A DNA stretch of 64,000 nucleotides. Source: a virus. The notes under the pieces are model-generated. The model was not told where the DNA came from and did no database searches. It saw only the letters and a program-made list of their open reading frames with translations. A program made the position numbers and the translations under genes. Positions 1,948 to 48,114 of this stretch are shown here, piece by piece; the stretch's first letter is position 1, and every line of letters starts with the position of its first letter. The stretch is taken from positions 1-64,000 of IMG/VR virus record IMGVR_UViG_3300042691_048368; one strand, 5' to 3'.

Positions 1948-3411
1948 ATGAAGATAACTAGATTTCAAAACTGGAGCAAAATAAACGAGGAAGCATCACC
2001 TAGACTTCCAAAAAACGTTGATTATTGGAAAAAAAGAGGGAAAATCGGGAAGGATGTAGCTCTTTACACCCATGATGATATGGATGGTATATTCAGTGCT
2101 ATAGAAGTAAAAAAATATTTACTCAATGCTGGATTCAAAATTGTAAAATACGGTATATTGAACTACTCAGAAGGTTGGAAATATACATCATTAGATCCCA
2201 AACTAATAAATGTCGTTGTAGATTTTGCAAATATGCCTGGTGATGAAAGGGATGAAATGATCGATTTTTATCTTGACCATCATGGTGTCTTCAGTGAAGA
2301 GGAGATAAAAAAATACATGAAATCTCCTGTTCAAAAAAAGAAAACAGGATCTGCCTATGAGGCTATCTGTCAATCACTTGGTGTGCCTCAAGACTCTTTG
2401 ACTGTTTCAGTGATAGACATGATTGATTCTGCTAAATATCAACACTACGGAGTTTCTTGGCAAAGACTACTCGATTTCAATCTCTCAGATATAAAGAAAT
2501 CAGACAAAGCAAGACTTGAGTTTGCGGCAGCTTTCAATCAATTTTTGAAAAGATCTGATACTAAAACAATAATAGGTGTAATTGATAACTGTAATGACGC
2601 ATCTATCTTTGCTATCTATAATGCTATGAAAACTCTTTATCCAGAACATAATGTTGGTAGATATGGAGATCCAAAACAATTCATTGATGATTCATCTTGG
2701 AGATTAGGTGAGATGGGTAGAAGAGTAAGAGGTAGAGGTGAAAAGAAAGTTTATGACACACAAGAAGATTTCCTATCAGCTTTTCAAAGAAATGGTTTAA
2801 TACAACTTGATGGATATCAAATAATAGGTGATTTAGCATTTATTCCAACTGGCACGTGGGCAAATGCATTGAGAGCTAGATCAATCATAGAAAAAGAACT
2901 TTCAGAAGGTAAAATATCGAAAGAGCCGAAATTTATTCTTCTACAATATGGAGGCACACTGCAAGTTTGTTCTTATAAACCAATGGATGAATATGGTGAT
3001 GATTTACCAAAACTAAAATCAGGAGAGGCCGTGACAGATTTGGGAGCTTATATGACTAAATTATTGAAAAATTTTCAAGAACATTTAGGTTACCACAATC
3101 CTGACACATCCTTGGGCCAAGATGAGATTACGGTTTCCGGCGGACATGGAGGCATAGGATCAATTTCGAATATCTTCGGTGAATGTGACAAGGAACCATA
3201 TGTTGGTCAAAGATTTGTAGATATGTTCAAGAATAAAATAATAACAGATTTATCTGGTGTTTCTTTCAATCTTAACATAAAATGGTCCGAACCAAAAGAA
3301 TTTAAGAGTAAGGATCCAGAAATGGACAACAAAGTTATTAGTGCTGAGGATGTAACGAAAATTGGACGTAGCGGTAAGATACTAAGATTTGATGGTTTGA
3401 AAGAAGATTAA
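1948..3411 (+). CDS. DHH-family phosphoesterase with capsid-targeting-like N-terminus
   Basis: Motifs HDDMDG, VVDFA, LDHH and C-terminal SGGHGG; N-terminus MKITRFQNWSKINEE. Confidence 0.8.
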   Translation: MKITRFQNWSKINEEASPRLPKNVDYWKKRGKIGKDVALYTHDDMDGIFSAIEVKKYLLNAGFKIVKYGILNYSEGWKYTSLDPKLINVVVDFANMPGDERDEMIDFYLDHHGVFSEEEIKKYMKSPVQKKKTGSAYEAICQSLGVPQDSLTVSVIDMIDSAKYQHYGVSWQRLLDFNLSDIKKSDKARLEFAAAFNQFLKRSDTKTIIGVIDNCNDASIFAIYNAMKTLYPEHNVGRYGDPKQFIDDSSWRLGEMGRRVRGRGEKKVYDTQEDFLSAFQRNGLIQLDGYQIIGDLAFIPTGTWANALRARSIIEKELSEGKISKEPKFILLQYGGTLQVCSYKPMDEYGDDLPKLKSGEAVTDLGAYMTKLLKNFQEHLGYHNPDTSLGQDEITVSGGHGGIGSISNIFGECDKEPYVGQRFVDMFKNKIITDLSGVSFNLNIKWSEPKEFKSKDPEMDNKVISAEDVTKIGRSGKILRFDGLKED

Positions 3412-4797
3412 TTACTTCTTGAACGACTTCAAAACACCCTTATCCTTTTTCCTATCGTATTGATCATCATCAAACTTTGTATCAAAGAAGTTATCAGTTT
3501 CGGAAACAATTTTAGTTTCCGAACTTATGTTAGCGTAAGGACCTAATTTTCCACTTCTAAACACACCACCTATCATATCACAATTCAAATATCCACCCAT
3601 AAAGAAACAATCTTTTAGTTGGGTAGCTTCTACCTCACAGTTAAGAATTTTAGTACCAACTATTTCACAACCGTGGATTCTAGATTTAATGATTTGACAA
3701 TTATCGACTTCAGAATTAACGAAGTGACAATTTTCAAAGATACCATTCGTTACTATACAATTTATAAAATCAAACCCTGAGACATTTTGAGAAGTCTTCA
3801 GATTAGCATCGATTATTTCAATTTTTTGTGTTGAGGTAACAAAGTTGATTATACAATCCTCCAACTTTTCGGTAGAGTCAACTAATTTGTGAAGCTTGGG
3901 AAATATTCTATCGTAATATGCGTTTACTATATCATAGGAATATTGTTGGTCAATCTGTAGTGTCACAGTTGGGAAATCAACTATGAAGTTATCATACTTT
4001 GAAAAATTTTTAAAGTTGTTTATATTTTCTTCCAAATATTTTTCCAACTGCTCAATATCTTCATCATTAAATGTAGCTTCTATTGATTTATACACATCTA
4101 ATATGAATCTATCGAAGAAGTAAGTAATTTGACCTATATTTTTCTCGTAATCTTTTCCCCCAATATATCTGAATTCCAATCTTTGAGATTCTTTTGGATT
4201 ATTAATATGTAAGAAGTTTACACCATAGTATTTATCATCGGGTAGTCTTAGAGTATTCTTTACAACATCGATTGGTACACTATTGTAGTCATATTCTTTG
4301 AATGGTATCATTTTCTTTATGGATTTAGCGTAAACATTTCCTTTCCTTGATGGATAGGAACTGTATATCTCATCCTCATCAACCATCAGAATTAATTTCA
4401 AAACATTCAAATCATTCAAGTTTCTATTTTCATCAGCAAATGATATATTAAAGTGTATAGATGATTTTTCATTTGTGTATCCATACATTTGAATGAATTT
4501 TAATATTTTAACCATATAATACTTCGCCTCAAAGTACTCTAATGGTCCAGTTATCATCTCGACCATGTTTGCACCCCCTGACAAGTCTGGCTCAATTTTG
4601 AAATTCTGAGAATCTGGCTTAAAATCGGTATGATATTTTCTAAAACCCCAAACTTTTACAGGTGCTAAATATTGATTCAACAATTCTAAAGTTTTGTAGA
4701 AAGATAGATCTTTCATATAAAATTCAAATTCAAGACCACACTTGGACTTCTTAAGAATTTCCGAATCATTTAAAAACTTTTCTGAATATTTCCTCAT
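3412..4797 (-). CDS. Putative amidoligase (COOH-NH2 ligase, Amidoligase_2-like) with C-terminal beta-helix-like repeats
   Basis: GLEFEF, IEPDLS, VEMITGP, SIHFNIS, KYYGVNF, RLEFRYIGG; C-terminal repeats such as FENCHFVNSEVDNCQI. Confidence 0.75.
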   Translation of the reverse strand: MRKYSEKFLNDSEILKKSKCGLEFEFYMKDLSFYKTLELLNQYLAPVKVWGFRKYHTDFKPDSQNFKIEPDLSGGANMVEMITGPLEYFEAKYYMVKILKFIQMYGYTNEKSSIHFNISFADENRNLNDLNVLKLILMVDEDEIYSSYPSRKGNVYAKSIKKMIPFKEYDYNSVPIDVVKNTLRLPDDKYYGVNFLHINNPKESQRLEFRYIGGKDYEKNIGQITYFFDRFILDVYKSIEATFNDEDIEQLEKYLEENINNFKNFSKYDNFIVDFPTVTLQIDQQYSYDIVNAYYDRIFPKLHKLVDSTEKLEDCIINFVTSTQKIEIIDANLKTSQNVSGFDFINCIVTNGIFENCHFVNSEVDNCQIIKSRIHGCEIVGTKILNCEVEATQLKDCFFMGGYLNCDMIGGVFRSGKLGPYANISSETKIVSETDNFFDTKFDDDQYDRKKDKGVLKSFKK

Positions 4798-5135
4798 TAT
4801 TTAAATTGGGTATTATCTTGTAAATGTTTCCTCAAAAAGGTTTGTAACTTTGGACATTTATTTTCAACATCATTTTTCATTTGATTAAAACCGGATATAG
4901 TAGTGGGATTGTCAAAAATATTTTTTATTGCCATAATTTCCAAATCCGTGACAGTGTTCGAATTTTTGTATTTATTAGAAGTTTTGTAAAGTTCCAAATA
5001 CTCATCTATTAGTTTTTCCTCACATTTTAAAGTACCATTTAAATAAAGTGGTATTATATATGAAGCATATCTTTTTAAAATACTTGGGTCAGGTATAAAT
5101 CTTTTAGATTCTACAACTTTTGTGAATTTTTCCAT
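4797..5135 (-). CDS. Hypothetical protein (late, CTS-like N-terminus)
   Basis: 112 aa; TAATATATA at 5157-5165; 1-nt stop/start overlap with the amidoligase gene. Confidence 0.7.
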   Translation of the reverse strand: MEKFTKVVESKRFIPDPSILKRYASYIIPLYLNGTLKCEEKLIDEYLELYKTSNKYKNSNTVTDLEIMAIKNIFDNPTTISGFNQMKNDVENKCPKLQTFLRKHLQDNTQFK

Positions 5136-5175
5136 GATAAAAATTTATTTATAGAGTATATATTATTTTCATTTA

Positions 5176-5207
5176 TTTGGAAATAAAAATGAAATTGTAT
5201 ATTTTTG
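5176..5207 (+). promoter_or_regulatory. Bacteroidota housekeeping-sigma (-33/-7) promoter, putative early
   Basis: TTTG(5176-79)-N20-TATTTTTG(5200-07), 4 nt before ATG 5212. Confidence 0.7.
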
Positions 5208-5211
5208 TGTC

Positions 5212-15206: not shown

Positions 15207-15524
15207 TTACATCCTCTGGCTCCAAATAGATTTTGGTTTATTAACTTGAACGCCCGTTTTCCAAAGTCCAAGTCTTAATTTTGAGTCATTATTAAACTCA
15301 CCTCTCAATCTTCCACACTGTTTATCCGTCAAATAAATGTGAAACATCTCCGCATACATATTATCATCAACTGGATTCAAAAAGTATTCGCTATTCGATT
15401 CAAATTCATCCAAATCTTGTATTATGCCAGATCCCCACCCATGGGTTTTTTTTAATATTTTGATTATTCTATCATAATCATATGAATCTTCAAACATTTC
15501 AAAGAATTTCTTGATCCTCATCAT
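15207..15524 (-). CDS. Hypothetical protein with CTS-like N-terminus
   Basis: MRIKKFFEMFED. Confidence 0.65.
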   Translation of the reverse strand: MMRIKKFFEMFEDSYDYDRIIKILKKTHGWGSGIIQDLDEFESNSEYFLNPVDDNMYAEMFHIYLTDKQCGRLRGEFNNDSKLRLGLWKTGVQVNKPKSIWSQRM

Positions 15525-16938
15525 CGGTGTTCGATCTCATTTTGTTCATAATAATCATATTGAAATTGTCAACTGGTTCGAAGTTATATTTAGCATTCAA
15601 TTTGCCCGACATTTCGCCACCACTGAATTTTATATCAATATTACAATTAATAAGAGGTTCATCGTCAAGTTCCATTCTCAGTTTTATTGAAAAGTCATTT
15701 TTTTCTTCTTCTTCATTATCAACAATCAATCTTACATGATAATCAAATTTGATATTTATATCATCATAGAAATCTCTGAAAAACTTTCTTGATGGTACTT
15801 GGTGAAAATCCTTTCCTTTCTTTCCTAAAAAATAAGTTGGTCTTTCTAAACAACCTAATTTTTCCACGAAAGTTTTAATCAATTTCATTTTTACATTGCC
15901 ATCCGCTTTTTTGAATCCATCATCTAATTTTGTAATTTCATCTTTACTATTCGTTAATAAGGAATCTGTAATTAAATGTTCCAATATTTTTGAATTTAGT
16001 AGATAAATTTTAACCTCCATCCACTCATTGAATACTTTTTCAACGTCCAAAAAGCATTGATCTTTATTTTTCCATATTTCACTCATCAAGTCTGAAAATT
16101 TCAAGATATTCTTATCAAATTGTTTGATGTGTTCACCAATATTTTTGAATCTCATATCTCTGTGTTTCAAGTCAAAATATTCAAAATAACCTAGTGTGTC
16201 AATTCTTTCTGGTTCTATAAACTTTTCTATGTGAATTTGAATTGGTTTATTAGCATTTTCATAAATTATTTTAACCCAACTTTGTGTTAATTTATCCCAC
16301 TTTTTGATATACTCCTCATTGTACAAATTTTCTATACCCTTTCCGATAAAATCATCGGCAAATGTATTGAATGATGAAGATTTGGATGTGGATAAAGTTT
16401 TATTTACAAAAATACTGAACTGAGCACCTGATTTCAATTCAATAACTAAATCTTCCCCGTGGTCTTTGTCTTTATTCGGACCAATCCAATAAACTTTTGA
16501 TATAAGGTCTTCTGACAATTTTTCTTCGACCAAAATTTTATCGATAATATTACGAGCTGTGATTCTCGCATCGACCAATTTATTCCAATCTTGTTCGATG
16601 TCAAATTTAACTTCTTCAAAATATCCATTTATTTTTGAATGTTCGGTATCTTCAACACATACGTTATTTTCAAACTTACCCAATTGTAATCTATTTTTCG
16701 CTATTAATAGATTTTTTAAATCCGTAAGAAAAACATTTGAATTTTCTGTATACCTACCTTTCAAACCTCGGTCAAGAAGATTATCTAGAAATTCATTATT
16801 CAATAATATCATACCTACACAAATTTCTGTTATTAAATTTTTTGGCTTATAAATAGTCTTTTCTAAATCATTCTGTGCTTGAACTTTGAATTGGTTTTGT
16901 GCTTCCAAAAAAAGTTCGTAACCTCTTAACCATCTCAT
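15499..16938 (-). CDS. Hypothetical protein with CTS-like N-terminus
   Basis: 479 aa; MRWLRGYELFLE. Confidence 0.7.
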   Translation of the reverse strand: MRWLRGYELFLEAQNQFKVQAQNDLEKTIYKPKNLITEICVGMILLNNEFLDNLLDRGLKGRYTENSNVFLTDLKNLLIAKNRLQLGKFENNVCVEDTEHSKINGYFEEVKFDIEQDWNKLVDARITARNIIDKILVEEKLSEDLISKVYWIGPNKDKDHGEDLVIELKSGAQFSIFVNKTLSTSKSSSFNTFADDFIGKGIENLYNEEYIKKWDKLTQSWVKIIYENANKPIQIHIEKFIEPERIDTLGYFEYFDLKHRDMRFKNIGEHIKQFDKNILKFSDLMSEIWKNKDQCFLDVEKVFNEWMEVKIYLLNSKILEHLITDSLLTNSKDEITKLDDGFKKADGNVKMKLIKTFVEKLGCLERPTYFLGKKGKDFHQVPSRKFFRDFYDDINIKFDYHVRLIVDNEEEEKNDFSIKLRMELDDEPLINCNIDIKFSGGEMSGKLNAKYNFEPVDNFNMIIMNKMRSNTDDEDQEIL

Positions 16939-16953: not shown

Positions 16954-16975
16954 ATTTTAATATATATATTAAAAT
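16954..16975. promoter_or_regulatory. Perfect 22-bp palindrome forming a bidirectional late-type promoter
   Basis: ATTTTAATATATATATTAAAAT contains TAATATATA on both strands, between divergent genes starting at 16938 and 16994. Confidence 0.65.
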
Positions 16976-16993: not shown

Positions 16994-17626
16994 ATGAGGT
17001 TCATCAAAGATTTCAAAAGGTACCAAGAATCATTAAGAATAGAATTTGGTTATATAGATATAGATATAAATGAGTCATTGGGCTTATTATACGATAACGT
17101 TTTAAAATCCATAGGGGCGGAAGAAATTGATATGTTCGATACATTCCATCTACCCAAAGATGATTTTGCAGATAAAATGAATTTGGATCTATTGACTGCA
17201 AGTACAGAATTTATAAACTCATTATCAAGTATAGGTTTAAAAAATTCGAATGTTACAAATAGTGATGATTTTGAAACTTTTTTCAAAAGACCTTGTAGAT
17301 TCATGATGATTTATCGTATAGAGGCAAATGAACTTGAAAACCCCTCATATATTATATTCCAACCTTGGAGTGATTTGTTAAATAAGTGGGAAGATTGCAA
17401 ATTGTATAAAGTAAATGGAGATATAAAGAATTTTTATGATAAACTCTCATCCAAAGTCATTGAGGTTGAGGATGGTGGTGAAAAATTCATATATCAAACT
17501 TCAAACGGCAACGAATGGAATTTACAAAATTTGGACAAAGCAAATGACACGTATTTGAAATATTTCAGAACTGAAGATTTCGAGAAATTACTCAAAGATA
17601 GAAAAGTTTCTATCAACATAATTTAA
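16994..17626 (+). CDS. Hypothetical protein with CTS-like N-terminus
   Basis: 210 aa; MRFIKDFKRYQES...INES. Confidence 0.7.
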   Translation: MRFIKDFKRYQESLRIEFGYIDIDINESLGLLYDNVLKSIGAEEIDMFDTFHLPKDDFADKMNLDLLTASTEFINSLSSIGLKNSNVTNSDDFETFFKRPCRFMMIYRIEANELENPSYIIFQPWSDLLNKWEDCKLYKVNGDIKNFYDKLSSKVIEVEDGGEKFIYQTSNGNEWNLQNLDKANDTYLKYFRTEDFEKLLKDRKVSINII

Positions 17627-22237: not shown

Positions 22238-22876
22238 ATGATCAAGAAGAACGAAGAATCAAGTGGTGAGGAAAGGAAACTTTTTTCATTCAAAAAGTTT
22301 TCCGACTTAGGTAAAGGAAAAGAAAATGAATTGGAATCAGATGATCCAGCTTCTATACCAGCTAGACCTTTTGCTGATACCGACATGCCACAAGGACCAA
22401 ATGTTCATAAAGAAAAAACCAAAAAGGAAAAATTTATGGACACTAGTCACATGAAACCAAAGAAGACGGATTCTGACGACTCAAAACTTGAATCAAAGGA
22501 TGTTACATTTTTTGGTAAAATTGCTAAACTTCCAAAGGGTGTAAAAGCTTCTAAAGGTTATAATTTTTTAGAAAATATAAAAGTTTCGAAAAGTTCGATT
22601 TGGTATCTACTTGTTGAAAAACAAGATAACGAACTACAAATGGTAAAATACAATCACAAGAAAGGAGTTGATTTGTCAAAATTCGTAAAGGAGTTGAAAA
22701 CTTACTACATTTCAAAGAATTCTTCAAATAGTAAAATTTGTAATCTGATCGAAAACATTACGATTGACGGAAATGATAAATATTCTTGGATTAAGAATAT
22801 ACCAATGATAGAAGTTGAAGGTAAAAAGCTAGTGACTAAGATTACCGAAGACTTAATAAAATTATTAAGTAAGTAA
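22238..22876 (+). CDS. Hypothetical late protein
   Basis: 212 aa; TAATATATA at 22209-22217; KLFSFKKF motif. Confidence 0.7.
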   Translation: MIKKNEESSGEERKLFSFKKFSDLGKGKENELESDDPASIPARPFADTDMPQGPNVHKEKTKKEKFMDTSHMKPKKTDSDDSKLESKDVTFFGKIAKLPKGVKASKGYNFLENIKVSKSSIWYLLVEKQDNELQMVKYNHKKGVDLSKFVKELKTYYISKNSSNSKICNLIENITIDGNDKYSWIKNIPMIEVEGKKLVTKITEDLIKLLSK

Positions 22877-23070
22877 TGCCAAATTTAAGAATATTCGGTT
22901 CAGCGATTCATGACACTGCACTCGTAATGATTGTGACTTCATCACTATCTTCAATATTTTATTATGTGACAAGAGGGTACATTGAGAGAAATGAAGCAAA
23001 CATGAGCCTATTATTTGGTTTAGTTTGTTCCGGAATTTATTGGTATACTCAGTATAAGATTAAGAAATAA
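22876..23070 (+). CDS. Small two-TM membrane protein
   Basis: 64 aa, two hydrophobic helices, TAATG coupling to the upstream gene. Confidence 0.6.
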   Translation: MPNLRIFGSAIHDTALVMIVTSSLSSIFYYVTRGYIERNEANMSLLFGLVCSGIYWYTQYKIKK

Positions 23071-23617
23071 TCTTCTTCAAAACAAAATCTGGTCTTTTTC
23101 TCATATCGATAGTAGTTAGATCGATGTGAGCAATATTTTCTAATTCTAGATAAGATTTTATCCATCTATCTAATTTTTGAATTTCATTTTTATTCTGATA
23201 CCTTATACCATCCTCTACATTATCAAGAATTGGTGGTAAGTAAAAAACATAATCCCATTGATTTATGGATTTCAGTATTTCTTTTTGTAAGTGATTTATT
23301 ACTGCAATATCCTTTTGTGAAAGATTTGAATCATATAAGTTTCTAAAATAGAAATAATTCAAAATACCAGAAGAGTCACAGATTATGTAGTCTTTAGATC
23401 CAACAAACATTCTTTCTTTGTTCAACTGTTTATAAAATATAACAAGTTGATCTACGGGAGTGTTTGGAATTCCATATTCGGCTATATAATCTGTTGCTAC
23501 TTCTGGTACAAAAATTGAATTTTTACCCAACTTTTTTAGTTCAGTATGAACGTCTGTTGCTAATGTAGACTTACCACTACTCGGTGCCCCAATAAAAGTG
23601 ATTAGTTTACTTTCCAT
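23060..23617 (-). CDS. NadR/Ttd14-like P-loop kinase (AAA_28-like)
   Basis: GAPSSGKST, FVPEVA, IICDS, EDGIRYQ. Confidence 0.75.
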   Translation of the reverse strand: MESKLITFIGAPSSGKSTLATDVHTELKKLGKNSIFVPEVATDYIAEYGIPNTPVDQLVIFYKQLNKERMFVGSKDYIICDSSGILNYFYFRNLYDSNLSQKDIAVINHLQKEILKSINQWDYVFYLPPILDNVEDGIRYQNKNEIQKLDRWIKSYLELENIAHIDLTTIDMRKRPDFVLKKIIS

Positions 23618-25735: not shown

Positions 25736-26776
25736 ATGAAAGTCGTAAAATATTCGGAATATTCAAAAATTAATGAGGAATTTGTTTTGAGTGCTATAAA
25801 AGGTGCGCTTGGTAAATTGTTTGGATTTTTCGCAAATGCTTTCAAAGATTTGGGTGCTGATTTTAAATCTATGTTCAAAGAGGATGACCCTTCCACTATA
25901 AAAGACATAGTAATGAAAAATGTTGACCAAGCTGTTGATGGTGCTCAAAAGGAAATCACCAATCTAAAAAGTGATGGTGATGTATTGGGTATAGTGGATA
26001 ATATGGTGACTCAATTAGTTGAACTTGGTAATAACATTACTAAAGATGTTGAGGGTGCTTTAGGTAAGGAAAAATCAAAACCTGTTGAGGAAATCTCAAA
26101 AGCGTTACTACTTGGAAATAAAGAAGTGGATTGGGTTGGTATAGTTGGTGCATTGGATCCAGCGGCAGGAATTTTGAAAAAAGACATAAATTTTGCATAC
26201 TCGAAGAAGAAATTCGTTGAGTCAGTAAACAAGGGTAAAGATTTGAATCAGAAAAAAACCTTGGCTTCAAAGTTTCTTGATGATTTTCAAAAAACAATAA
26301 GGGCTGAATTAGAAAAAGCAGTGACCGATGAAGAGATAAAAACTCTTTATGATAAAATGAAGGGTGGAGACGCTGGTACTGATTTGGAATTGAAGGAAGG
26401 TGATATGGTTGTGTATCTCCTCAAAGGAAAGAAAAAAGAGGAATTTGATGAAAAGAAAAAACCTGAAGAACAAAAAGATGTAGTTGGTGTAAAGAAAATC
26501 GAAAAAATAGATGGTGATAAAATAACATTTCTAGATAAAGACGGTAAACCTACAATTTTAAAAACAAAAGCTGAAATACTAAAGAAGGTTGAAGTTGAAA
26601 TGGGCCAAAACGCAAAGAAGGTTGCAGACTCACTTGGAAAAATCAAACAAGACGAGGAAAAAATGGGTAAAGTTGCTACTTTCGCTGAATTTATTCAAGA
26701 TGATAAAAATAAAGACAAACTAGCTGAAATAGAAAAAATACTTTCTGGTGGTGAACAGCCAGCCGCACAAGCATAA
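25736..26776 (+). CDS. K/E-rich hypothetical protein with CTS-like N-terminus
   Basis: 346 aa; MKVVKYSEYSKINEE. Confidence 0.75.
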   Translation: MKVVKYSEYSKINEEFVLSAIKGALGKLFGFFANAFKDLGADFKSMFKEDDPSTIKDIVMKNVDQAVDGAQKEITNLKSDGDVLGIVDNMVTQLVELGNNITKDVEGALGKEKSKPVEEISKALLLGNKEVDWVGIVGALDPAAGILKKDINFAYSKKKFVESVNKGKDLNQKKTLASKFLDDFQKTIRAELEKAVTDEEIKTLYDKMKGGDAGTDLELKEGDMVVYLLKGKKKEEFDEKKKPEEQKDVVGVKKIEKIDGDKITFLDKDGKPTILKTKAEILKKVEVEMGQNAKKVADSLGKIKQDEEKMGKVATFAEFIQDDKNKDKLAEIEKILSGGEQPAAQA

Positions 26777-28466: not shown

Positions 28467-29684
28467 TCAAAAAGGTGTTAAATCTTCTTCAACTTGCTCG
28501 TCATCCAACGGGATGTAAAACATATTCGGTGAATTTATGTGTTCTTGTTGCGACTTTTTCTTACGTAATGATTCTAATAAAATATTATTGTTGAGGTCAT
28601 TGTCTTTGAAGATCCAATCATTCAGTGTAGGATCATACTGAGCATCATCCCTAAGAATGAAAGTGTCAAAGACATCAGAGTGTATACATAAATTCGAGTG
28701 AACGCGCATATCGAGGTAATTTAGATAAAGGGTCTCACTGAATTGGTAGTACAGTTTAGTTTTTTCACACAAAGTTAGATGATCCGAATCATAAGTAGAA
28801 CCATCGGCAGATGATAATGTCCTTATATTCGTATTAATCTGTGGTTTGTGGTTAGATATTTTACCCGACTTAAAATCTAAAAATTTGAATGTATCCATAT
28901 AAGGATAGTAATCGAATTTGAAATTATTAAGATCGAAATTTATTTCCTTATAAATTGTTTTTCCTTTGGACTCGAAAAACAAACTGTTGTTCCACTTTTG
29001 TTCTTTCTTATAAATAAACCCGTTTTCATCTGCCCATTTTTTAAAGTGGAACTGATAAGTTTCATCATCAATGGTATAAATTCTGTCCATTATCTTTTCA
29101 CCATTAATAGACCACAAGAGTGCTCGGCCAATCAACATATGATTATCTGTTAAAAGTACGAGTAAAGAAATTTTGTCTTTATTATCAGTATAAAGGCGCA
29201 GATAATCTTGACATTGATCATATTTCATGCAAGAATTACCAAGTGATCCAGACTCTGAGAGATAAGATTCATAGTGATAATAATGATAAATATTATCGCC
29301 ATTTACGACTTTGAAATTTGAATTAATTTTTGTCTGTACATTTTTAAAGAGCTGTGAGAAATTTTCTACTTCCCTTGGGTGGATGTTTCGGAAAAGTTTC
29401 GAAATGAATGCGCCGGGTTTGATGTGGAACCTTTTTGGAGAAGTCCACAAATCCTCTCCATTTTGCAAAAGATTTTCTATTCTTTCTTGAGTTAAATATG
29501 AAATCTTTGTTCTGTCTGATTGGGAAATAGAAATATAGTTGATGTGATTATCAACTAGGTTTTCTATTGAGTGTCTCTGTTTCAATAGAAGTCTAGCGAT
29601 TTCGGAATTATCCTTGATTTGTTCGAGGATGTAATCTAATTCTAATGATGTAATAATATCGGAGGTTTTTCTTGTATACGCCAT
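28467..29684 (-). CDS. Conserved phage protein of the SCM/GRALLW/MDRIY type; paralog A (early promoter)
   Basis: GSLGNSCMKY, IGRALLW, IMDRIY, YPYMDT; clear similarity to 30868..32004. Confidence 0.75.
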   Translation of the reverse strand: MAYTRKTSDIITSLELDYILEQIKDNSEIARLLLKQRHSIENLVDNHINYISISQSDRTKISYLTQERIENLLQNGEDLWTSPKRFHIKPGAFISKLFRNIHPREVENFSQLFKNVQTKINSNFKVVNGDNIYHYYHYESYLSESGSLGNSCMKYDQCQDYLRLYTDNKDKISLLVLLTDNHMLIGRALLWSINGEKIMDRIYTIDDETYQFHFKKWADENGFIYKKEQKWNNSLFFESKGKTIYKEINFDLNNFKFDYYPYMDTFKFLDFKSGKISNHKPQINTNIRTLSSADGSTYDSDHLTLCEKTKLYYQFSETLYLNYLDMRVHSNLCIHSDVFDTFILRDDAQYDPTLNDWIFKDNDLNNNILLESLRKKKSQQEHINSPNMFYIPLDDEQVEEDLTPF

Positions 29685-29723: not shown

Positions 29724-30580
29724 AGTTGTGAAAGTTTATCTTCACGAATGAAGCACTGTGTGATTTGGAGAATTTTTTCAGTTTCCTTTCGAACAACATA
29801 TGAATCTTGATTGCGAAAAACATTCATATAAGCTTGAAATACCTTGAATGCATCTATGGAAAAATCATTGTACGATTCAATATTTAGTTTATCACTTGGG
29901 GTCATGAGTACATTAATTTGTGCTTTTGTAAAATCCTTGGAATGGTTCCAACGAAGGACGTTCTTTAGTGCATCAAACTTATTGTGATTTACTTTCTGGT
30001 CCTTATCAATGATAACATTACGAACTTGTGAAATCATTACTCGCTCCCCTACAAGTGATTTGATAGACTCAATTTGCTCATCAAAAGTCTCCACATCTAT
30101 ATTTTGAGCGGCAACTTCTGCTTTATCGGAAATACCTTTGATGTGTTTAGTGATAAGTGAAAAGTTTTTGATATTACTAACTAAATATGTACCATTATCA
30201 GCTTGATAAAGACCAAGATTCATACTGAGTCTACGAGACTTATCTGAAGAATTGAGTATGAAGAAAGCTTTGAAATACTTGATGCCAGCAATTTCAACTT
30301 CATCGGAGAGGAGAATGAGTTCTTGAATACCACCTCGAATGCGGAGATTTGAATAAGTAATATTGAAATTTGATTCAATATAATCGATTTTGGACTTCAT
30401 AAAAGACCGAATATCAAAAATCTCATAACGATTAGATACCAGTGTAGTGTTGATAACCCTACCGAAGTATTTGGTAACTACTTGGGATCCACTTTGACTG
30501 ATGTCAATTGCTTCGACACGACGAAAAAGGTCTGATTTGTTGTATTTTTGGTAACCGCGAGATAGTAGAAATGTTGACAT
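29705..30580 (-). CDS. DUF932/DUF945-like protein (early)
   Basis: VSNRY, FILNSSDKSRRLSMNLGLY resembles the LxNSHDG...GxFR core; ends IREDKLSQLL. Confidence 0.55.
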   Translation of the reverse strand: MSTFLLSRGYQKYNKSDLFRRVEAIDISQSGSQVVTKYFGRVINTTLVSNRYEIFDIRSFMKSKIDYIESNFNITYSNLRIRGGIQELILLSDEVEIAGIKYFKAFFILNSSDKSRRLSMNLGLYQADNGTYLVSNIKNFSLITKHIKGISDKAEVAAQNIDVETFDEQIESIKSLVGERVMISQVRNVIIDKDQKVNHNKFDALKNVLRWNHSKDFTKAQINVLMTPSDKLNIESYNDFSIDAFKVFQAYMNVFRNQDSYVVRKETEKILQITQCFIREDKLSQLLDMLD

Positions 30581-30848: not shown

Positions 30849-30867
30849 TATATTAATATATAAATCT

Positions 30868-32004
30868 ATGTTAAATAATTTTAATGGGTTCATTCTAGAG
30901 AAACAAGTAGTATCTTTATTATTGGAGAATGATTTAAACGCGTCACCTGAGTTTCTTGCAAGATTGAAAAAGATAAGAGATAGGAGTAAAGTAGCTCAAA
31001 TACTCTACGATTTATTCAGTGCAGAATACTATATTGTAAAAGATTTGCCTCAGAACTGGATTGATGTGACAAATGAGCCAGAAATGATTTCATTTTTATC
31101 TGATAGTAGAGCTAAAAGAACTCCGATGCAATGGGATGAAGATAGTTCAAAATATTATGATGTTTCTGGCAGAGGTCAAATAAAAGTTGGTAGGTTTGCA
31201 CAAGCTTTATTAAATGATCCAGATGTGATTGAAGATTTAGATTTATCCTTTGTTGAAAACTATATTCAAGGACTAACACCAAAAGATTTCGAAGATTTTG
31301 TAAACTTGTACAAATCTGAATTTGTAGTAGTTTCTAATGAGTTTAAATTGGTAAAGGGTGATGAAATCCCTTACTATTATGATTTTATGAACTATGCATA
31401 TCCCGACAAGGGACACTTGGGTGCATCTTGTATGAGGTATACACATTGTCAAAGATACTTCAGTATCTACAAAAAAAACCCAGAGGTGTGTCAATTATTG
31501 GCGTATGTAAATCAAGAAAATAAAGTTTTGGGTAGGGCACTTGTCTGGAAACTAGATAAGAAAGTTGATGGGTGTCCAGCAGAATATTTTATGGACAGAG
31601 TTTATTGTGCAAATGATAGTGATATGATAAAGTTCAAAAATTACGCTAAAGAGAAGGGTTGGGTTATGAAAAACAAAAATGCATCTGATGCGTATGAGGC
31701 TTTATTCTTCAACTACAATGATAAAGTCATTTTATCACACATTAGTGTTCAATTGAAAGAATCAAATTTTGCATTTTACCCTTTCATAGACACTCTGTCT
31801 TTATTGAACGAAACAAACGGTAAGTTACATAATGTTTTAGGGAAAAATTGTATTGAACTTACTTCGACAGATGGAGATTTTTACACGCCCGATACGAACA
31901 AAAGTAGGAGGGAAAATCTGAAAGAAATGCTAAACGAAATACTCAATGATAATAATTATTTGGGTTATAGAGACCTTATAGAAACTGCATTATCAAATCT
32001 TTAA
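30868..32004 (+). CDS. Conserved phage protein of the SCM/GRALVW/MDRVY type; paralog B (late, CTS-like N-terminus)
   Basis: GHLGASCMRY, LGRALVW, FMDRVY, YPFIDT; MLNNFNGFILE; TAATATATA at 30854-30862. Confidence 0.75.
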   Translation: MLNNFNGFILEKQVVSLLLENDLNASPEFLARLKKIRDRSKVAQILYDLFSAEYYIVKDLPQNWIDVTNEPEMISFLSDSRAKRTPMQWDEDSSKYYDVSGRGQIKVGRFAQALLNDPDVIEDLDLSFVENYIQGLTPKDFEDFVNLYKSEFVVVSNEFKLVKGDEIPYYYDFMNYAYPDKGHLGASCMRYTHCQRYFSIYKKNPEVCQLLAYVNQENKVLGRALVWKLDKKVDGCPAEYFMDRVYCANDSDMIKFKNYAKEKGWVMKNKNASDAYEALFFNYNDKVILSHISVQLKESNFAFYPFIDTLSLLNETNGKLHNVLGKNCIELTSTDGDFYTPDTNKSRRENLKEMLNEILNDNNYLGYRDLIETALSNL

Positions 32005-33266: not shown

Positions 33267-34219
33267 AAATATTATATGGTATTCAGTCAACAGGAAACGG
33301 TCATATATCAAGATCAGCAAAAATAGTAAATAAACTTATTAGAAAAGGTTTCATGGTGGATATCCTTTTCTCTGGTAAAAATTCACAATTGGCATTTCCA
33401 TTTCCTATAAAATATAATTTCACCGGTCTGACATTTCATTATGACGGTAGTGGTAATATTTCCTATTGGAAAACATTTAAGGACATACACATCATACAAT
33501 TCTTAAATGATATTAAACTAGACCTTACATCTTATGACTTGGTAATTTCAGATTTTGAGCCAATCACTGCCTGGGCGTCAAAGTTACAAAAAAGGAAATG
33601 TGTAGGTATAAGTAACCAATGTTCTTACATTTCAAATAAAGTACCTAGACCTGAAAAAAAAGATTTTCTTGGTGAATCAATACTCAAATGGATGGCTCCT
33701 GTGTCAAATCCAATTGGATTACATTTTGAAAAATATGACGATTTTATATACACTCCGATTATAAAAGAATCCTTGATGAAAATATCAACAAGTGATAAAG
33801 GTCATTATGTGATTTATTTGCCAACTTTTGAACTCGAAAATGTGTTAAGTCAGGTATATAAAATAAAAACGGTTAGGTTTGACATCTTCACTCACATAAA
33901 AAAACCTCATTGGATTGGTAAATGTCATGTTTTACCAATAAAAAAAGATTTATTTGATGAAAGTATAAGGACTTGTCACGGTGTAATAAGTACAGGAGGG
34001 TTTCAAACTTCAGTTGAATCCTTATACTTAGGTAAAAAATTGATGGTCATACCAACAAAAGGTCAATATGAGCAGTTATGTAATGCTGAATCATTATCCA
34101 AAATGGGATGTGATGTGGGTTTATTAACCGATATACCAAAATTTATAGATGGGGGTAAAAACATTAAAATCGAATGGGATGACCCGTCTGATGAAATTAT
34201 TAAAAGATTGTTGAATTAG
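33263..34219 (+). CDS. GT-B glycosyltransferase, MJ1255/VC2487-like (GT28-related)
   Basis: MKILYGIQSTGNGHISRS, LVISDFEPITAW, STGGFQTSVESLYLGKK, PTKGQYEQLCNA; GTGA overlap with the plcP-like gene. Confidence 0.85.
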   Translation: MKILYGIQSTGNGHISRSAKIVNKLIRKGFMVDILFSGKNSQLAFPFPIKYNFTGLTFHYDGSGNISYWKTFKDIHIIQFLNDIKLDLTSYDLVISDFEPITAWASKLQKRKCVGISNQCSYISNKVPRPEKKDFLGESILKWMAPVSNPIGLHFEKYDDFIYTPIIKESLMKISTSDKGHYVIYLPTFELENVLSQVYKIKTVRFDIFTHIKKPHWIGKCHVLPIKKDLFDESIRTCHGVISTGGFQTSVESLYLGKKLMVIPTKGQYEQLCNAESLSKMGCDVGLLTDIPKFIDGGKNIKIEWDDPSDEIIKRLLN

Positions 34220-35118
34220 ATTTTTTTATCAAACAAGAAAACATCGAATATATTATTGCCTTTTACTCTTTTTATTTTTTTCAAAGTTTCACCGGCTATT
34301 GAATCCATGACTTTGAAAACCCCAAGATTCGTACCTTTTTCATCAATTACTTTAACAGTATTGCCCGCTTGACCAAGTGCTCCAAGAATCGCAAAGTATT
34401 TATTACCATAAATGCTTTTCAGGAAAGACATTCTAACATTTGCTATGTCTTTCATATTATTCACGTAAGGATTGTCAAGTGGGTTATTCAAATCAATTTT
34501 AGTATCAGTAGTTTTGACTCTAATTGTAGCAAATTGTCTAGTTTCTTCACCAAGAGAAATATCTTCTTTATTTTGTATCTCTTGCGCTTTTAGAAGAGCT
34601 TGTTGATTCTTTCTTATTTCATTAAAATCAGCTCTAGCAATGATTCCACCTCTCATTCCTTTATCATTCATATTGTAACCTTGAGGTGGAAGTCTGTAGA
34701 AAGATCCAGTGAACGTGATTGACAAAACTCGATCAAGTCTAAACATTCTCCAAATTTTATTTATGTGTCTGTTGGCCGATACAGACCAACCGTTAAGGTG
34801 ATATCCTCTAACTAATTCTTTACCTTTTTGTGAACGTCCCAAAACCATAGGATAAATAACTCTTTCGTGTCCAGCAAAATGTTTATCCTTTGCACCTTTA
34901 TAGTTTATGAGGAATACCATACCATATTTAATGGCTTTGATTAGAATTTCTTCTGTTGGTTTTATAGGTTCATTAATTGGTATATCAGCAATCTTGGTTG
35001 CTTTTTTTATGTTAAATCTTGGTACATAAGTATTATCTTCTTTGAGTTCATATTTTTCTTTTATAACAAACTCAACTGGCTTTGTATTGTAATATTGCCT
35101 ATACTCACTTAGTGTCAT
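34216..35118 (-). CDS. WYL-like domain protein
   Basis: INYKG...ERVIYPMVLG...VRGYHL...WRMFRLDRVLSI. Confidence 0.7.
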   Translation of the reverse strand: MTLSEYRQYYNTKPVEFVIKEKYELKEDNTYVPRFNIKKATKIADIPINEPIKPTEEILIKAIKYGMVFLINYKGAKDKHFAGHERVIYPMVLGRSQKGKELVRGYHLNGWSVSANRHINKIWRMFRLDRVLSITFTGSFYRLPPQGYNMNDKGMRGGIIARADFNEIRKNQQALLKAQEIQNKEDISLGEETRQFATIRVKTTDTKIDLNNPLDNPYVNNMKDIANVRMSFLKSIYGNKYFAILGALGQAGNTVKVIDEKGTNLGVFKVMDSIAGETLKKIKRVKGNNIFDVFLFDKKI

Positions 35119-44609: not shown

Positions 44610-44731
44610 AGAATTTTAAATTATTTTTTATAATATTATATATTTTGTCAATAATCTTTCTAGTCATTTTTTAATATAAATAGGTTTAGAAAATTGCCAT
44701 TTCCACTTTTAGTATGTGATATATATTAAAT

Positions 44732-45562: not shown

Positions 45563-45586
45563 AAAAAAATCATTTTTACCCGATTT

Positions 45587-45614
45587 GAACTATGATCAAC
45601 TAAGTTTATATAAT
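45587..45614 (+). promoter_or_regulatory. Putative middle-class promoter
   Basis: GAAC-N18-TATAAT directly before the gp47-like gene. Confidence 0.55.
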
Positions 45615-45615
45615 A

Positions 45616-46743
45616 GTGATGTCAAAAATTCTAATTATTGGTGATACCCACTTAGGTCTTGGTTACCCGAATTCGATTGATAAATGGTTTAAAGTACACA
45701 GGGAATATTTTGAAGAATTTTTAATTCCTTTAGTTCGGAAAGAAATGACCGAAGATGATATTATAATCCACTGTGGAGATTTATTTGACAATCGGTCAGT
45801 GGTTCCGATTAATATACTCAATTACGCACAAGATCTCCTCGAAAAACTATCTTCTATATGTCCGGTGCATATACTAATTGGTAATCATGATTTGTACACT
45901 AAAGCCTCTAATGATGTGAATACTGTCAAATTATATAAGTATATACCAAACATTACCGTTTACGAAAAGCCTACCAAAATTGATTTTTGTGGAAAGTCAA
46001 TATTGATGTTACCTTGGGTTGAGAAAAAACAAGACCAAATTGACATACTAAAAAGATTTTCTGGTTGTGATTATCTTTTCTGTCATTCGGATTTGAACGG
46101 TGCAAAAATGCATTTGACCTCTGTTGCACATAAAAATCAAGATAAAATAGATGTGGAAGATTTTTCAGGTTACAAAAATGTATATTCTGGTCATATACAC
46201 ATCTTGCAAGTCACAAAAAATTTCACTTTTGTCGGTAATAATTTTGAAATGGATCGAAATGACATTAACAATCAAAAGGGAATTTTTATCTTAGATACTT
46301 TGGTTGACGAGGAGAGATTCATTCCTAATAATATTTCACCGAGATACAAAAAGATATACATAAGAACTCAAGAGGATATTGATCAATTAGAAAACACTTC
46401 GACAAAAGATTATATTGATCTTTTCATATCAAATTCATTGTTGATAAACAATAGGAAATTAAGAAGAAAGTTAGAGTTAATGTTGGAATCCGGTAACTTT
46501 GCTTCAGTTGACTACATCGATGATTTAGTTTTGGAAAAAAATGAAGAAACTAAATCTGTGATTGAAGAAATTACTGAAGAAGAATTAAACAATGGTGTGG
46601 TTCCATCTATTCAATTAGAATATACTGATTTAATTAGACAATACATTAATACTCAGAAATATGAAAGTGAGAAGATCAAAAATGGCGTCTTACAAGAGTT
46701 TAATGAAATTGCTAGAATATATGATGAGGGTTATTTAGAATAG
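45616..46743 (+). CDS. Recombination endonuclease subunit, T4 gp47/Mre11/SbcD-like
   Basis: GDTHLG, GDLFDNR, GNHD, LPWV, FCH, SGHIH. Confidence 0.9.
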   Translation: MMSKILIIGDTHLGLGYPNSIDKWFKVHREYFEEFLIPLVRKEMTEDDIIIHCGDLFDNRSVVPINILNYAQDLLEKLSSICPVHILIGNHDLYTKASNDVNTVKLYKYIPNITVYEKPTKIDFCGKSILMLPWVEKKQDQIDILKRFSGCDYLFCHSDLNGAKMHLTSVAHKNQDKIDVEDFSGYKNVYSGHIHILQVTKNFTFVGNNFEMDRNDINNQKGIFILDTLVDEERFIPNNISPRYKKIYIRTQEDIDQLENTSTKDYIDLFISNSLLINNRKLRRKLELMLESGNFASVDYIDDLVLEKNEETKSVIEEITEEELNNGVVPSIQLEYTDLIRQYINTQKYESEKIKNGVLQEFNEIARIYDEGYLE

Positions 46744-47033
46744 TTTGGTTTTCTTCCACTACCTTTAGATCCGGTACTCTCTGCTTTTCTTTTCCTAGCA
46801 ACCGCTGCTTTCTTTTGTTTCGCCGACATCTTAGCGGCAACCCTTACTTTTCTGCATTTGGGATATCCACCTTTACTTGTGTCAGACCTTCCGCATGGTG
46901 GATGAGACCCATCTTTATTTGTCTTGGAAATATCAACCCATTTTTCTTTGAACCATTTATCGAGTCCACCATGAGAACCCTTATATGATTTTTCCTCATG
47001 GATGAAATCTTCAAATAATAGTAGATGTTCCAT
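46731..47033 (-). CDS. Small basic protein with CTS-like N-terminus
   Basis: GLDKWFKEKWVDI...CGR...YPKCR; MEHLLLFEDFIHEE. Confidence 0.75.
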   Translation of the reverse strand: MEHLLLFEDFIHEEKSYKGSHGGLDKWFKEKWVDISKTNKDGSHPPCGRSDTSKGGYPKCRKVRVAAKMSAKQKKAAVARKRKAESTGSKGSGRKPNYSK

Positions 47034-47251
47034 TATCTTTTCTTAGACTTTTTAACTTTTGACTTTCTCCAAGTGCCACCTTTTTTCTTATATCTTTTTG
47101 CAGCAGCTCCATTAGCATAAGCTGATGGATAAACGTCATAGGTATTTTTTGCCCAAGCTTTACAGGAAGCCCATAAAGATGGGTTATTTGGCACGTTTTT
47201 CTCAACTACAAGTGATTCTTTAAAATCTTCGAAAGGTAATAAATGATTCAT
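47033..47251 (-). CDS. Small basic protein with CTS-like N-terminus
   Basis: PNNPSLW...YPSAYANG...YKKKGGTW; MNHLLPFEDFKESLVVE. Confidence 0.75.
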   Translation of the reverse strand: MNHLLPFEDFKESLVVEKNVPNNPSLWASCKAWAKNTYDVYPSAYANGAAAKRYKKKGGTWRKSKVKKSKKR

Positions 47252-47261
47252 AACATATATA

Positions 47262-47528
47262 TTATTTTATTTTAGTAACTTTTAATACTAAATCACCAGT
47301 GCCCTTTATTAGTCTGTGGTAGACCCCTTTAGGTACAAATATTTTTTCATCTATTTTTTTGGGTAATTCGTTATCAATTTGAAAGGTCCAATCTGTTGGA
47401 TGAGTTGGTTCTATTATTCTGTCCTCTCTGTCACGATGCCAATGTAAGTTTCCATTATCTACATTTTCATGGAATGTTCTTAAATAAGTCAAGTCATTCA
47501 ATTTGGATTCTTCAAATGGTAAAATCAT
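47262..47528 (-). CDS. Small cupin-like protein (start revised to 47528)
   Basis: LHWHRDREDR...WTFQIDNELP...IFVPKGVYHRLIKG. Confidence 0.7.
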   Translation of the reverse strand: MILPFEESKLNDLTYLRTFHENVDNGNLHWHRDREDRIIEPTHPTDWTFQIDNELPKKIDEKIFVPKGVYHRLIKGTGDLVLKVTKIK

Positions 47529-47535
47529 AAATAAA

Positions 47536-48114
47536 TCACCAGAAACCTGGATATGTTTTTCCTCCCCAAAGATTTGCATATCTATTAGCCCTACAAGCCC
47601 AGTAACCTGGTTTGGTCTTATCCTTTTTCAAATGGCACTGATGTCTTGCAGCAAAAGCTTTTCTAGCTTTAGGATCAGAAACCTTTGCACTCAGACCACC
47701 TTTAGCATCACCAAAGTTTACTACTTTAACTTTTTTTGTCTTGGGATTAATCACATAAACTTTGTATTTTTTTGGACCCGAGCTTCTCATAGGTTTGCCT
47801 ATTGGAACTTTTTTTCCATGATATTCGGCTTCGTTCAAATCTTCGACTTCTTCTAATGGTAAGTCCAAAGGTACCATTTCACCTTCGTATTCTGCAAATT
47901 TACCAATATCAGTTGTTTCAAATAAAATTTTATCTATTCCCGATAATTCTACTTTATTAGTATCAAACAAAATTCTAGCTTCCTTTATTAGATCATAGAA
48001 CGAATTGGAACCAGGTCTGAACACATTTTCCAAAACGGGAAGGTTGTTATCGACATGATATTTTAGATTCTCACTGATTGGATGAAAATTATCGAATAGA
48101 TTAATATATTTCAT
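47536..48114 (-). CDS. Basic protein with CTS-like N-terminus and conserved C-terminal domain
   Basis: YKVYV.NPKT.KV..VNFGD...ARKAFAARHQC...GYWACR; MKYINLFDNFHPISE; internal LNE. Confidence 0.75.
   Translation of the reverse strand: MKYINLFDNFHPISENLKYHVDNNLPVLENVFRPGSNSFYDLIKEARILFDTNKVELSGIDKILFETTDIGKFAEYEGEMVPLDLPLEEVEDLNEAEYHGKKVPIGKPMRSSGPKKYKVYVINPKTKKVKVVNFGDAKGGLSAKVSDPKARKAFAARHQCHLKKDKTKPGYWACRANRYANLWGGKTYPGFW

Follow-up and report, generated by a model that had tools for sequence, protein, structure and literature searches.

In bacteriophage T4, internal proteins are directed into the head by a short N-terminal capsid-targeting sequence (CTS), the action of which has been shown biochemically. 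The first 10 residues of the internal protein IPIII are enough for packaging; within the CTS, residues 4 and 7 (Tyr and Phe) serve in targeting and residues 8 and 10 (Ile and Glu) serve in processing (Kuhn and Thomas review, PMC9026906). In the T4 record, IPII and IPIII start with MKTYQEFIAE followed by A, which is the CTS sequence given in an earlier note on the DNA studied here, and IPI starts with MKTFKEFTSTTTPVSTITE, likewise followed by A. Here we describe a CTS-like tag of approximately 11 residues at the N-terminus of many unrelated late proteins that are encoded by the IMG/VR virus record IMGVR_UViG_3300042691_048368 and by related megaphages of 460–735 kb. The window analysed is the first 64 kb (positions 1 to 64,000) of this record, which is a single contig of 94,997 bp with a G+C content of approximately 31%.

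Other described systems share part of this design. The internal-protein loci of T-even phages are hypervariable, with >30 internal-protein variants (Repoila 1994 and Comeau 2007, cited in PMC2839356). As in the megaphages, a conserved regulatory element and a leader precede interchangeable cargo that turns over quickly, and an arms-race role has been proposed. However, T-even shuffling involves two loci with early-type promoters (PMC2839356), whereas the megaphage cassette carries the late motif ATATATA and is found genome-wide. The giant phages phiKZ, 201phi2-1 and SPN3US pack tens of MDa of diverse proteins; N-terminal propeptides direct these to the head and are trimmed after Glu by the prohead protease (PMC5694885). 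Unlike the megaphage tag, these propeptides are mostly 80–160 residues long, have no shared short consensus and are cleaved at (S/A/G)xE (PMC5694885); approximately 8–19 processed proteins are known from such phages, compared with >100 candidates in a megaphage. Leaders of other huge phages (MNRYDIALGKKPPP, MNWYK, MEMxIALAA and MKRYI), which are unverified leads, show the same design in other sequences.

The T4 CTS is already known, as are the variable internal proteins of T-even phages and the long propeptides found in giant phages of the phiKZ type. What appears to be new is a CTS-like tag in 'Mahaphage'-type genomes, and its presence on such a scale. A literature search for MKHLK-type motifs or a megaphage CTS returned nothing relevant, and we found no paper that describes this tag.

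A short tag is shared by the N-termini of many megaphage proteins

The relatives of the contig were identified through its capsid protein, which by tblastn shows 66–67% identity to that of two uncultured phages, LR756502 (642 kb) and LR745206 (635 kb). The identity is 36–50% for LR756504, LR756501/3 (735 kb) and LR756500 (462 kb), and it falls to 28% for the Lak phages and Tenacibaculum phage PTm1. We regard LR745206, LR756504, LR756502 and LR756501/3 (634–735 kb) as 'Mahaphage'-type phages, a group whose predicted hosts are Bacteroidetes (Al-Shayeb et al. 2020, PMC7162821); LR756500 is a smaller relative and is not placed there. Open reading frames (ORFs) beginning with ATG were called in the 95-kb contig (92 ORFs) and in the complete genome of LR756502 (913 ORFs; code 11, 92% coding), taking the first ATG of the longest ORF as the start. 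Some of these starts are wrong, and several 'internal' profile hits correspond to better ones.

The core of the tag is [LI]-K-x-[YF]-x-x-F, followed within 1–6 residues by a hydrophobic-x-Glu, and the consensus in LR756502 is M-K-[HY]-[LI]-K-x-[YF]-[KE]-[IL]-F-E-[SE]. The earlier note had proposed that about a dozen late proteins have in common a leader made of an aromatic pair and a nearby [ILV]-x-E. A shared leader does exist, far above chance, although its defining feature is a pair of aromatics at i and i+3 after [LI]-K-x and then hydrophobic-x-E; the canonical [ILV]xE is found in only ~45% of tags, and the broader hydrophobic-x-E in 82%. In the complete relative LR756502, the tag covers ~14% of the genes rather than a dozen.

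In that genome, the aromatic pair stands at index 6 and 9 in 95 of 913 N-termini, compared with 9.6 expected from internal-Met controls. A sequence profile of the tag matches 132 of the 913 N-termini but only 6 of 3394 internal Met sites and 51 of 167,435 internal positions; the figure of 132 is partly circular, as the profile was trained on LR756502 itself. The aromatic-pair count, a count of DNA patterns and transfer to other genomes provide measures that are free of this circularity. In four megaphage genomes, the DNA pattern encoding MK[HY]xK was counted 69, 59, 48 and 24 times, whereas reversed-pattern controls occur 1–4 times (the count of 69 compares with 3 for its reversed pattern). 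In LR756501, the tag is two residues shorter, with the form MIKK[FY]xxF(E/I)(S/N)E, and the aromatic pair stands at index 4 and 7 in 47 of 498 cases. A short-form tag of this kind, MLNNFNGFILE, is present in the window too. Altogether, the tag is conserved in at least five megaphage genomes, and the null controls comprised internal Met sites, internal positions, reversed DNA patterns and other phages.

For the contig itself, we relied on a core profile of 12 columns, aligned on the aromatic pair and trained on 121 tags from LR756502 and LR756501 only, because an earlier full-length profile under-scored short-form and degenerate tags. Most information resides in the columns of the two aromatics (3.3 and 3.7 bits). 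With this relative-trained profile, 8 contig N-termini score at least 9, compared with 0.30 expected, and 11 of the 92 exceed the 99th percentile of the null distribution, 7 of them within the window. A profile trained on LR756502 gives scores of at least 8 to 6 of 92 N-termini and to none of 471 internal Met sites, and the aromatic pair is found at index 6 and 9 in 7 of 92 N-termini, against 1.0 expected from internal-Met controls. When all ATGs of the contig were scanned in six frames, matches were nearly confined to real gene starts. In LR756502, 'internal' hits preceded by Met (at 29899 and 28930) probably reflect mis-called starts, and a 304-residue tagged protein (22663–23577, minus strand) carries a second complete tag, MKYLKAYKLFES, at approximately residue 124, which looks like a fusion of two tagged genes or an internal start.

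The megaphage tag picks out the CTS proteins of T4

The profile built from megaphage tags only was applied to 252 ORFs of T4. The three highest scores were those of gp61.1 (14.3), IPIII (13.1) and IPII (12.9), and IPI scored 8.7. Overall, 5 T4 N-termini score at least 9, compared with 0.44 expected. The aromatics of the megaphage tag and the Glu that follows correspond to the targeting residues and the processing Glu of T4. The top-scoring gp61.1 is a 54-residue hypothetical protein (NC_000866, 18966–19130, minus strand, just upstream of the primase gene 61) that starts with MKTFKEFIKED.

The context of the Glu residue is also biased. For the first Glu past the aromatic pair, a hydrophobic residue occupies P3 in 82% of tags (38% in controls) and a small residue occupies P1′ in 60% (26% in controls).

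The likeness to the CTS of IPI, IPII and IPIII, and to the short propeptides of Alt and gp24, therefore lies in a leader of 10–19 residues with an M-K start, aromatics at i and i+3 and a hydrophobic-x-Glu. It extends to the placement of the leader on otherwise unrelated, fast-evolving proteins and to the presence of head genes of the gp20/gp21/gp23 type. There are differences as well. The megaphage consensus is 1–3 residues longer, (MKH)LKxYKIFES compared with MKTYQEFIAE, and its Glu varies in position. T4 has 3–4 tagged genes in two small loci, whereas a megaphage has ~130 that are scattered throughout the genome. The cargo of T4 is basic and that of the megaphages mostly acidic, and in the megaphages the protease and the scaffold form one polypeptide. 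Finally, the megaphage tag is known here from sequence alone, unlike the biochemically characterized CTS.

The tag is modular and is conserved as a peptide

Once the 14 N-terminal residues are trimmed, BLAST sorts the 132 tagged LR756502 proteins into ~104 families, of which the largest cluster has 12–15 members. Pfam recognizes approximately 8 of 129 of these proteins, namely phage lysozyme, T4 Rnl1-type RNA ligase, SET, HNH, PQ-loop and CBM proteins. Transmembrane segments are rarer in tagged than in other proteins (4% versus 13%).

Some homologues carry the tag and others do not, with tagged and untagged forms differing by an N-terminal addition of 13–20 residues. For two tagged proteins of LR756502, the homologues in LR756501 begin exactly at the end of the tag and linker. 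In the window, residue 21 of the tagged protein encoded at 30868–32004 aligns with residue 8 of its untagged paralogue at 28467–29684 (minus strand), from which it follows that the tag is an add-on of ~13 residues. The length of the linker between tag and body varies.

At the nucleotide level, tag codons in LR756502 alternate synonymously (CAC/CAT, AAA/AAG and GAA/GAG), Leu is encoded by both TTR and CTN, and Ser by both TCN and AGY. The tag is selected at the peptide level. The portable, T4 CTS-like label on unrelated late proteins that the earlier note envisaged is well supported by computation: it is modular and peptide-selected, occurs in at least five genomes and picks out the CTS proteins of T4.

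Tagged genes also appear to change quickly. Homologues in 400 kb of LR756501 were found for 4 of 132 tagged genes of LR756502, compared with 72 of 688 other genes (p=0.005), and this lower degree of sharing points to a faster turnover of tagged genes between megaphages.

Two side observations concern what follows the tag in LR756502. A second motif, DILLEL.DDGF, is found 2–35 residues beyond the tag in a subset of the proteins (18 by strict and up to ~48 by loose matching), which constitutes a real family; this family is absent from the 95-kb contig. Between 11 and 90 kb of LR756502, where approximately one-third of the genes are tagged, many proteins carry this motif as (I/V)xDILL(E/D)LxDDGF, 2–35 residues past the tag. 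In four proteins of that genome (580926–581384, 544849–545472, 56658–57272 and 95990–96634), the tag and NEE(V/I) are followed by a hydrophobic segment resembling a signal or lipoprotein sequence (for example, INWKGVVAGAMSLLATACSN). This arrangement recalls SPN3US ejection protein gp47, in which removal of the propeptide exposes a transmembrane N-terminus (PMC5694885), and removal of the tag might unmask an export signal in these four proteins.

Tagged genes are associated with a putative late promoter

The sequence ATATATA, in an extended form TAATATATA, is located 5′ of the genes for the major capsid protein, the portal, the protease-scaffold protein, the tail sheath, TerL and the giant tail proteins in both the contig and LR756502. 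It was not found 5′ of the clamp loader gene, the SbcD-like gene or the gene for a gp55-like sigma factor. On the basis of this gene content and of the gp55-like gene, we infer that ATATATA is a late promoter.

The earlier note had stated that nearly all tagged proteins follow the late motif. In LR756502, ATATATA lies within 60 nucleotides (nt) of 80 of 132 tagged genes and of 171 of 781 untagged genes (odds ratio 5.5, p=4e-18), so the link stands in the complete genome; on the contig it does not reach significance (p=0.25). The four tagged contig genes that lack the motif sit directly behind motif-led genes. In addition, the spacing is distinctive. ATATATA is placed 4–9 nt ahead of the ATG (−11 to −16) in 54% of tagged but 9% of untagged genes of LR756502, a distance that implies leaderless or near-leaderless late transcripts. 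In the window, the palindrome ATATATATAT, a late-promoter-like core at 16960–16969, lies between the divergent tagged genes at 15499–16938 (minus strand) and 16994–17626 (plus strand), and it looks like a bidirectional late promoter for these two tag-led genes.

The contig encodes T4-type head machinery

Outside the window, the contig encodes a Portal_T4-type portal (1e-57) and a Gp23-type major capsid protein (4e-28), as well as a 704-residue head-maturation protease that matches phrog_207 (2e-30) and has a Peptidase_S77 score of 21.8 bits, under the Pfam cut-off. Genes for a large terminase, a 1302-residue tail sheath and a clamp loader are also located there. The window itself contains a gene for the baseplate wedge, along with several giant ORFs of the tail or baseplate. 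As the earlier note had observed, the recognizable structural and DNA-metabolism proteins do not carry the tag.

The N-terminal domain of the protease resembles T4 gp21 (BLAST E=6e-6) through GIF..V.NRN.R.Y and GE(F/L)xHP, in the region of the catalytic His, and its start, MKPILIVE followed by N, echoes the LIE-9 site of gp21. The gene (89463–91577 of the record, plus strand) continues from the protease into approximately 12 tandem repeats of 14 residues, YSEY[LI]AENLDKNI, after which come an acidic stretch and a C-terminal domain that is conserved. This fusion is shared by the contig, LR745206, LR756504, LR756501 and LR756500, and contains 18–30 [LI]xE sites, ~2-fold the expected number. The repeat region looks like a degradable scaffold of the gp22 type. 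The N-terminus of the capsid protein, which is encoded at 91656–93419 of the record, is homologous to the gp23 propeptide of T4 (KW.P.LE) and has a conserved candidate cleavage site, HSINE followed by N. In summary, the tag is specific to N-termini, modular and matched to the T4 CTS, and the head module is of the T4 type.

Two ideas concerning the relationship between tag and scaffold were rejected. The tag might have been a mimic of the scaffold repeat (Y-x-E-Y-I-A-E compared with Y-x-x-F-I-x-E), but the scaffold is not enriched among internal profile matches. Nor is the tag tied to the protease-scaffold fusion as such, because PTm1 has a fusion of this kind and no tag.

With regard to its origin, the contig most probably represents either part of a 'Mahaphage'-type megaphage genome or a reduced relative of such a phage. 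Homologues of 67 of its 92 ORFs are present in LR756502 in rearranged blocks, and these blocks map to distant parts of that genome (~94, 136–165, 175–246 and 526–569 kb). This scattered mapping would fit either a fragment with rearranged gene order or a much smaller relative that has kept the structural core. The DNA of the tail region gave no similarity match to GenBank phages.

Tagged genes of the contig

Twelve members had been listed in the earlier note. Five of these are clear (15499, 16994, 30868, 46731 and 47033). Key positions or orthologues support another three (47536, 15207 when read from its second Met, and 25736), and the DHH-like protein is a borderline case. Two fail, namely the amidoligase-like protein and MEKFTKVVE, and the WYL protein is doubtful. 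Pfam and PHROG searches with the listed proteins gave almost nothing beyond weak matches to DHH, pentapeptide, phrog_7595 and DUF5872.

The 479-residue protein encoded at 15499–16938 (minus strand) begins with MRWLRGYELFLE followed by AQ (core profile score 11.8, p=0.0008). It has 1134 metagenomic homologues, and nearly all of the 120 inspected start with MKW[LI][RK]xYx[LR]F[LK]E[AS]. In this family, Y6, F9 and E11 are the best-kept tag positions; an indel-rich linker comes next, and the conserved body begins at approximately residue 29. The AlphaFold2 model has a predicted local distance difference test (pLDDT) score of 83.6, with values <50 for residues 1–28 and a short detached helix at residues 7–16. 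When the model was compared with the Protein Data Bank (PDB), no Foldseek match reached E<=0.001, and the best VIA-align Z score was 5.1 (START-like and restriction-endonuclease-like). The family is restricted to viruses, and in the ESM Atlas it corresponds to a cluster of 578 and to viral hypothetical clusters only. Behind this gene, in the same operon, lies 15207–15524 (minus strand), which yields a tagged protein of 105 residues when read from the second Met (MRIKKFFEMFE followed by D). Read in this manner, it has aromatics at index 6 and 9 together with E7 and E10, and its profile score is moderate; a near-identical start, MRIKRFFELFD, is found on an unrelated 176-residue protein of LR756502. 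The divergent gene at 16994–17626 (plus strand) encodes a 210-residue protein that begins with MRFIKDFKRYQE followed by S and has no Pfam or PHROG match; it scores 7.1 with the core profile (p=0.006) and 9.1 with the full-length one (p=0.002).

The gene carrying the short-form tag, 30868–32004 (plus strand), encodes 378 residues beginning with MLNNFNGFILE followed by K (score 10.4, p=0.0018), and ATATATA is located at 30856–30862, 5 nt 5′ of its ATG. A degenerate tag, MKVVKYSEYSKINE followed by E, is found on the 346-residue protein of 25736–26776 (plus strand; own score 4.0, p=0.025), the LR756502 orthologue of which (34% identity) opens with the canonical MKHLRNFDKFKK / MKHLRNFDKF.

Three further tagged genes lie on the minus strand. 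The two adjacent ones at 46731–47033 (100 residues, MEHLLLFEDFIHE followed by E; score 11.8, p=0.0008) and 47033–47251 (72 residues, MNHLLPFEDFKE followed by S; score 11.9, p=0.0008; ATATATA at 47256–47262) show weak matches to DUF5872, the first to the C-terminal half of the profile and the second to the N-terminal half. They look either like a single gene that has been split, with a tag on both halves, or like a pair of partial paralogues. The third, 47536–48114 (192 residues, MKYINLFDNFHPISE followed by N), has a weak profile score (0.7, p=0.09) in which low-information positions are penalized; all five high-information positions (K1, Y2, I3, F6 and F9) are present, and its membership is supported by our reading of these key positions. 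The C-terminal part of this protein matches phrog_7595.

At the margin stands the DHH-like phosphoesterase of 1948–3411 (plus strand; 487 residues, MKITRFQNWSKINE followed by E; score 2.1, p=0.05), which has in common with 25736–26776 a (5,8)+SKINEE sub-variant. Its DHH matches in Pfam and PHROG are weak, the PDB sequence search was uninformative and no orthologue was found in LR756502. The amidoligase-like protein of 3412–4797 (minus strand; MRKYSEKFLNDSE; score 0.1, p=0.12) was rejected: its orthologue keeps MKKYSEKFLNQSG, which makes the N-terminus a portion of the body, and conservation does not extend to the Glu. MEKFTKVVE, encoded at 4797–5135 (minus strand), scores −1.9 (p=0.23) and is likewise a non-member. 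For the WYL protein of 34216–35118 (minus strand; MTLSEYRQY; profile 6.8, p=0.007), doubt arises from an orthologue of 74% identity that aligns from residue 10 only and has a different N-terminus. Further tagged genes start outside the window, at 64670, 69019, 79079 and 79675; a proposed identification of 79675–80286 as an isochorismatase-like enzyme was unsupported by Pfam and PDB sequence searches.

A capsid-targeting propeptide and its alternatives

We consider it probable that the tag is a capsid-targeting propeptide of the T4 type that has been hugely expanded in these phages. Late in infection, proteins carrying (M-K-[HY])-[LI]-K-x-[YF]-x-x-F would dock through the two aromatics onto the scaffolding core of the prohead. 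The scaffold-fused protease of the gp21 family would then probably cut off the leader after the nearby hydrophobic-x-Glu, and the mature proteins would be retained in the head with the DNA and delivered into the cell that is infected next. In many cases combined with a late promoter 4–9 nt 5′ of the ATG, the tag could in this manner form a portable cassette that makes head cargo of almost any gene. Docking, cleavage, retention and injection of the tagged proteins are inferred.

Several observations weigh against this proposal. Approximately 130 cargo species per genome would be unprecedented, and we searched the literature for virion or prohead proteomic data on these uncultured phages and found none (in the PTm1 record, where virion-proteome annotation was also sought, proteins identified by mass spectrometry are not marked). 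Lak-C1 and PTm1, which have similar head genes, show no enrichment of the tag (3 N-termini score at least 9 compared with 1.24 expected, and 1 compared with 0.65, respectively). The canonical [ILV]xE by index 16 is found in ~45% of tags and 17% of controls, and the Glu is placed either 1–3 residues beyond the second aromatic or before it (the 'FESF' class), which leaves the cleavage rule unsettled. The tag profile does not recognize the scaffold repeats. On the contig, the late motif is found at 9 of 13 tagged and 40 of 79 untagged genes, a difference that is not significant in this late-gene-rich sequence. A few tagged proteins, among them a PQ-loop membrane protein, look ill-suited to the capsid interior. 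In T4, gp61.1 and gp24.2 (MEQYDLYENES) score as CTS-like and have no known virion role, from which it follows that the motif alone does not prove packaging. Lastly, the tagged proteins are acidic (median isoelectric point (pI) 5.15 versus 5.9, with 61% below 5.5), whereas the internal proteins of T4 are basic. Basicity, however, is a trait of the three internal proteins of T4 and not of CTS function, given that Alt and foreign fusions are also packaged. The capacity of the head presents no obstacle either: at a single copy apiece, the 132 tagged proteins of LR756502 amount to ~2.6 MDa in total, compared with >40 MDa of ejection proteins in SPN3US (PMC7411985) and ~1000 internal-protein molecules carried by T4.

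A peptide that is N-terminal, modular and selected as such would suit any docking system, and the tag could instead bind something other than the prohead core. Candidate partners are a chaperone of the phage, a modifying enzyme, a protease governing protein lifetime, and another virion site such as the tail or baseplate; the likeness to T4 would then be the convergence of short amphipathic helices. The acidity and number of the cargo proteins, the weaker members at 69019–69588 and 69585–72608 directly upstream of the sheath gene, and the CTS-like start of gp61.1 would be in keeping with such a partner. No candidate gene for it was found, however, and docking of this kind does not predict the positional match to T4, the cross-recognition of IPII and IPIII or the hydrophobic-x-E/small context; we judge it unlikely, although worth keeping in mind. 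A radical-SAM enzyme was examined as the partner and rejected, as LR756504, with its 48 tags, lacks a gene for it, and LR756502 and LR745206 have a single one each. It is improbable that the conserved unit is a DNA or RNA cassette, in which a late promoter and the first ~10 codons serve leaderless expression or act as a recombination handle and the peptide has no function. The close spacing of ATATATA to the ATG in 54% of the tagged genes of LR756502, the palindromic promoter used by two divergent tagged genes, some bias towards codons ending in A (with ATA making up 95% of Ile codons at index 8) and the shuffling-prone regulatory elements that flank T-even internal-protein loci (PMC2839356) would all fit such a cassette. 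What it leaves unexplained is that synonymous codons, even those of non-overlapping families (TCN/AGY and TTR/CTN), alternate at conserved residues, that amino-acid substitutions are conservative (Y/F, L/I and K/R) and that the distance from tag to ATG varies (index 4,7; 5,8; 6,9). Moreover, 52 of the 132 tagged genes have no motif within 60 nt (distal promoters or operons), and ~70 genes with a proximal promoter have no canonical tag. A cassette is nevertheless compatible with a function of the peptide, for example as an added role in gene shuffling.

Common descent can be put forward as well: all tagged proteins would be paralogues that diverged within a single family, with the tag as the best-kept piece of a common N-terminal domain. 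The subset with the DILLEL.DDGF motif, the BLAST cluster of 12–15 members and the covariation of E10 with I/L/V8, which partly reflects subfamilies, lend something to this idea. It is made highly improbable by the division into ~104 BLAST families, by the presence of several Pfam folds that are unrelated, by homologues that occur both with and without the tag, and by the variable linker. As to chance, the genome is AT-rich and K, I, F, N and E are frequent at its N-termini, such that a compositional bias of gene starts might be suspected; the controls (internal Met sites, internal positions, reversed patterns and other phages) are exceeded 10- to 100-fold, which effectively refutes this explanation and reduces its likelihood to next to nothing.

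Implications for megaphage biology

If the tag is a capsid-targeting propeptide, a broader proposal can be made, which we offer tentatively and with less confidence. Phages of the 'Mahaphage' group may preload 10–15% of their genes' products (>100 per genome) into the capsid by means of an ancient T4-type peptide; these proteins would be injected with the DNA and would act before phage transcription, while the cassette of late promoter and tag would keep recruiting further genes. The injected 'first wave' would then consist of lysozyme, RNA-repair, nuclease and methyltransferase proteins, together with acidic effectors of mostly unknown function.

Such a finding would turn the T4 CTS, known until now as a curiosity of T-even phages and a tool of biotechnology, into a deep and conserved feature of heads of the gp21/gp23 type, and it would give a simple sequence rule by which head cargo could be predicted from metagenomic phage sequences. 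Were every seventh gene indeed marked for the head, much of the 'dark matter' of huge phages, with their hundreds of ORFans, could be read as injected proteins for host takeover or counter-defence.

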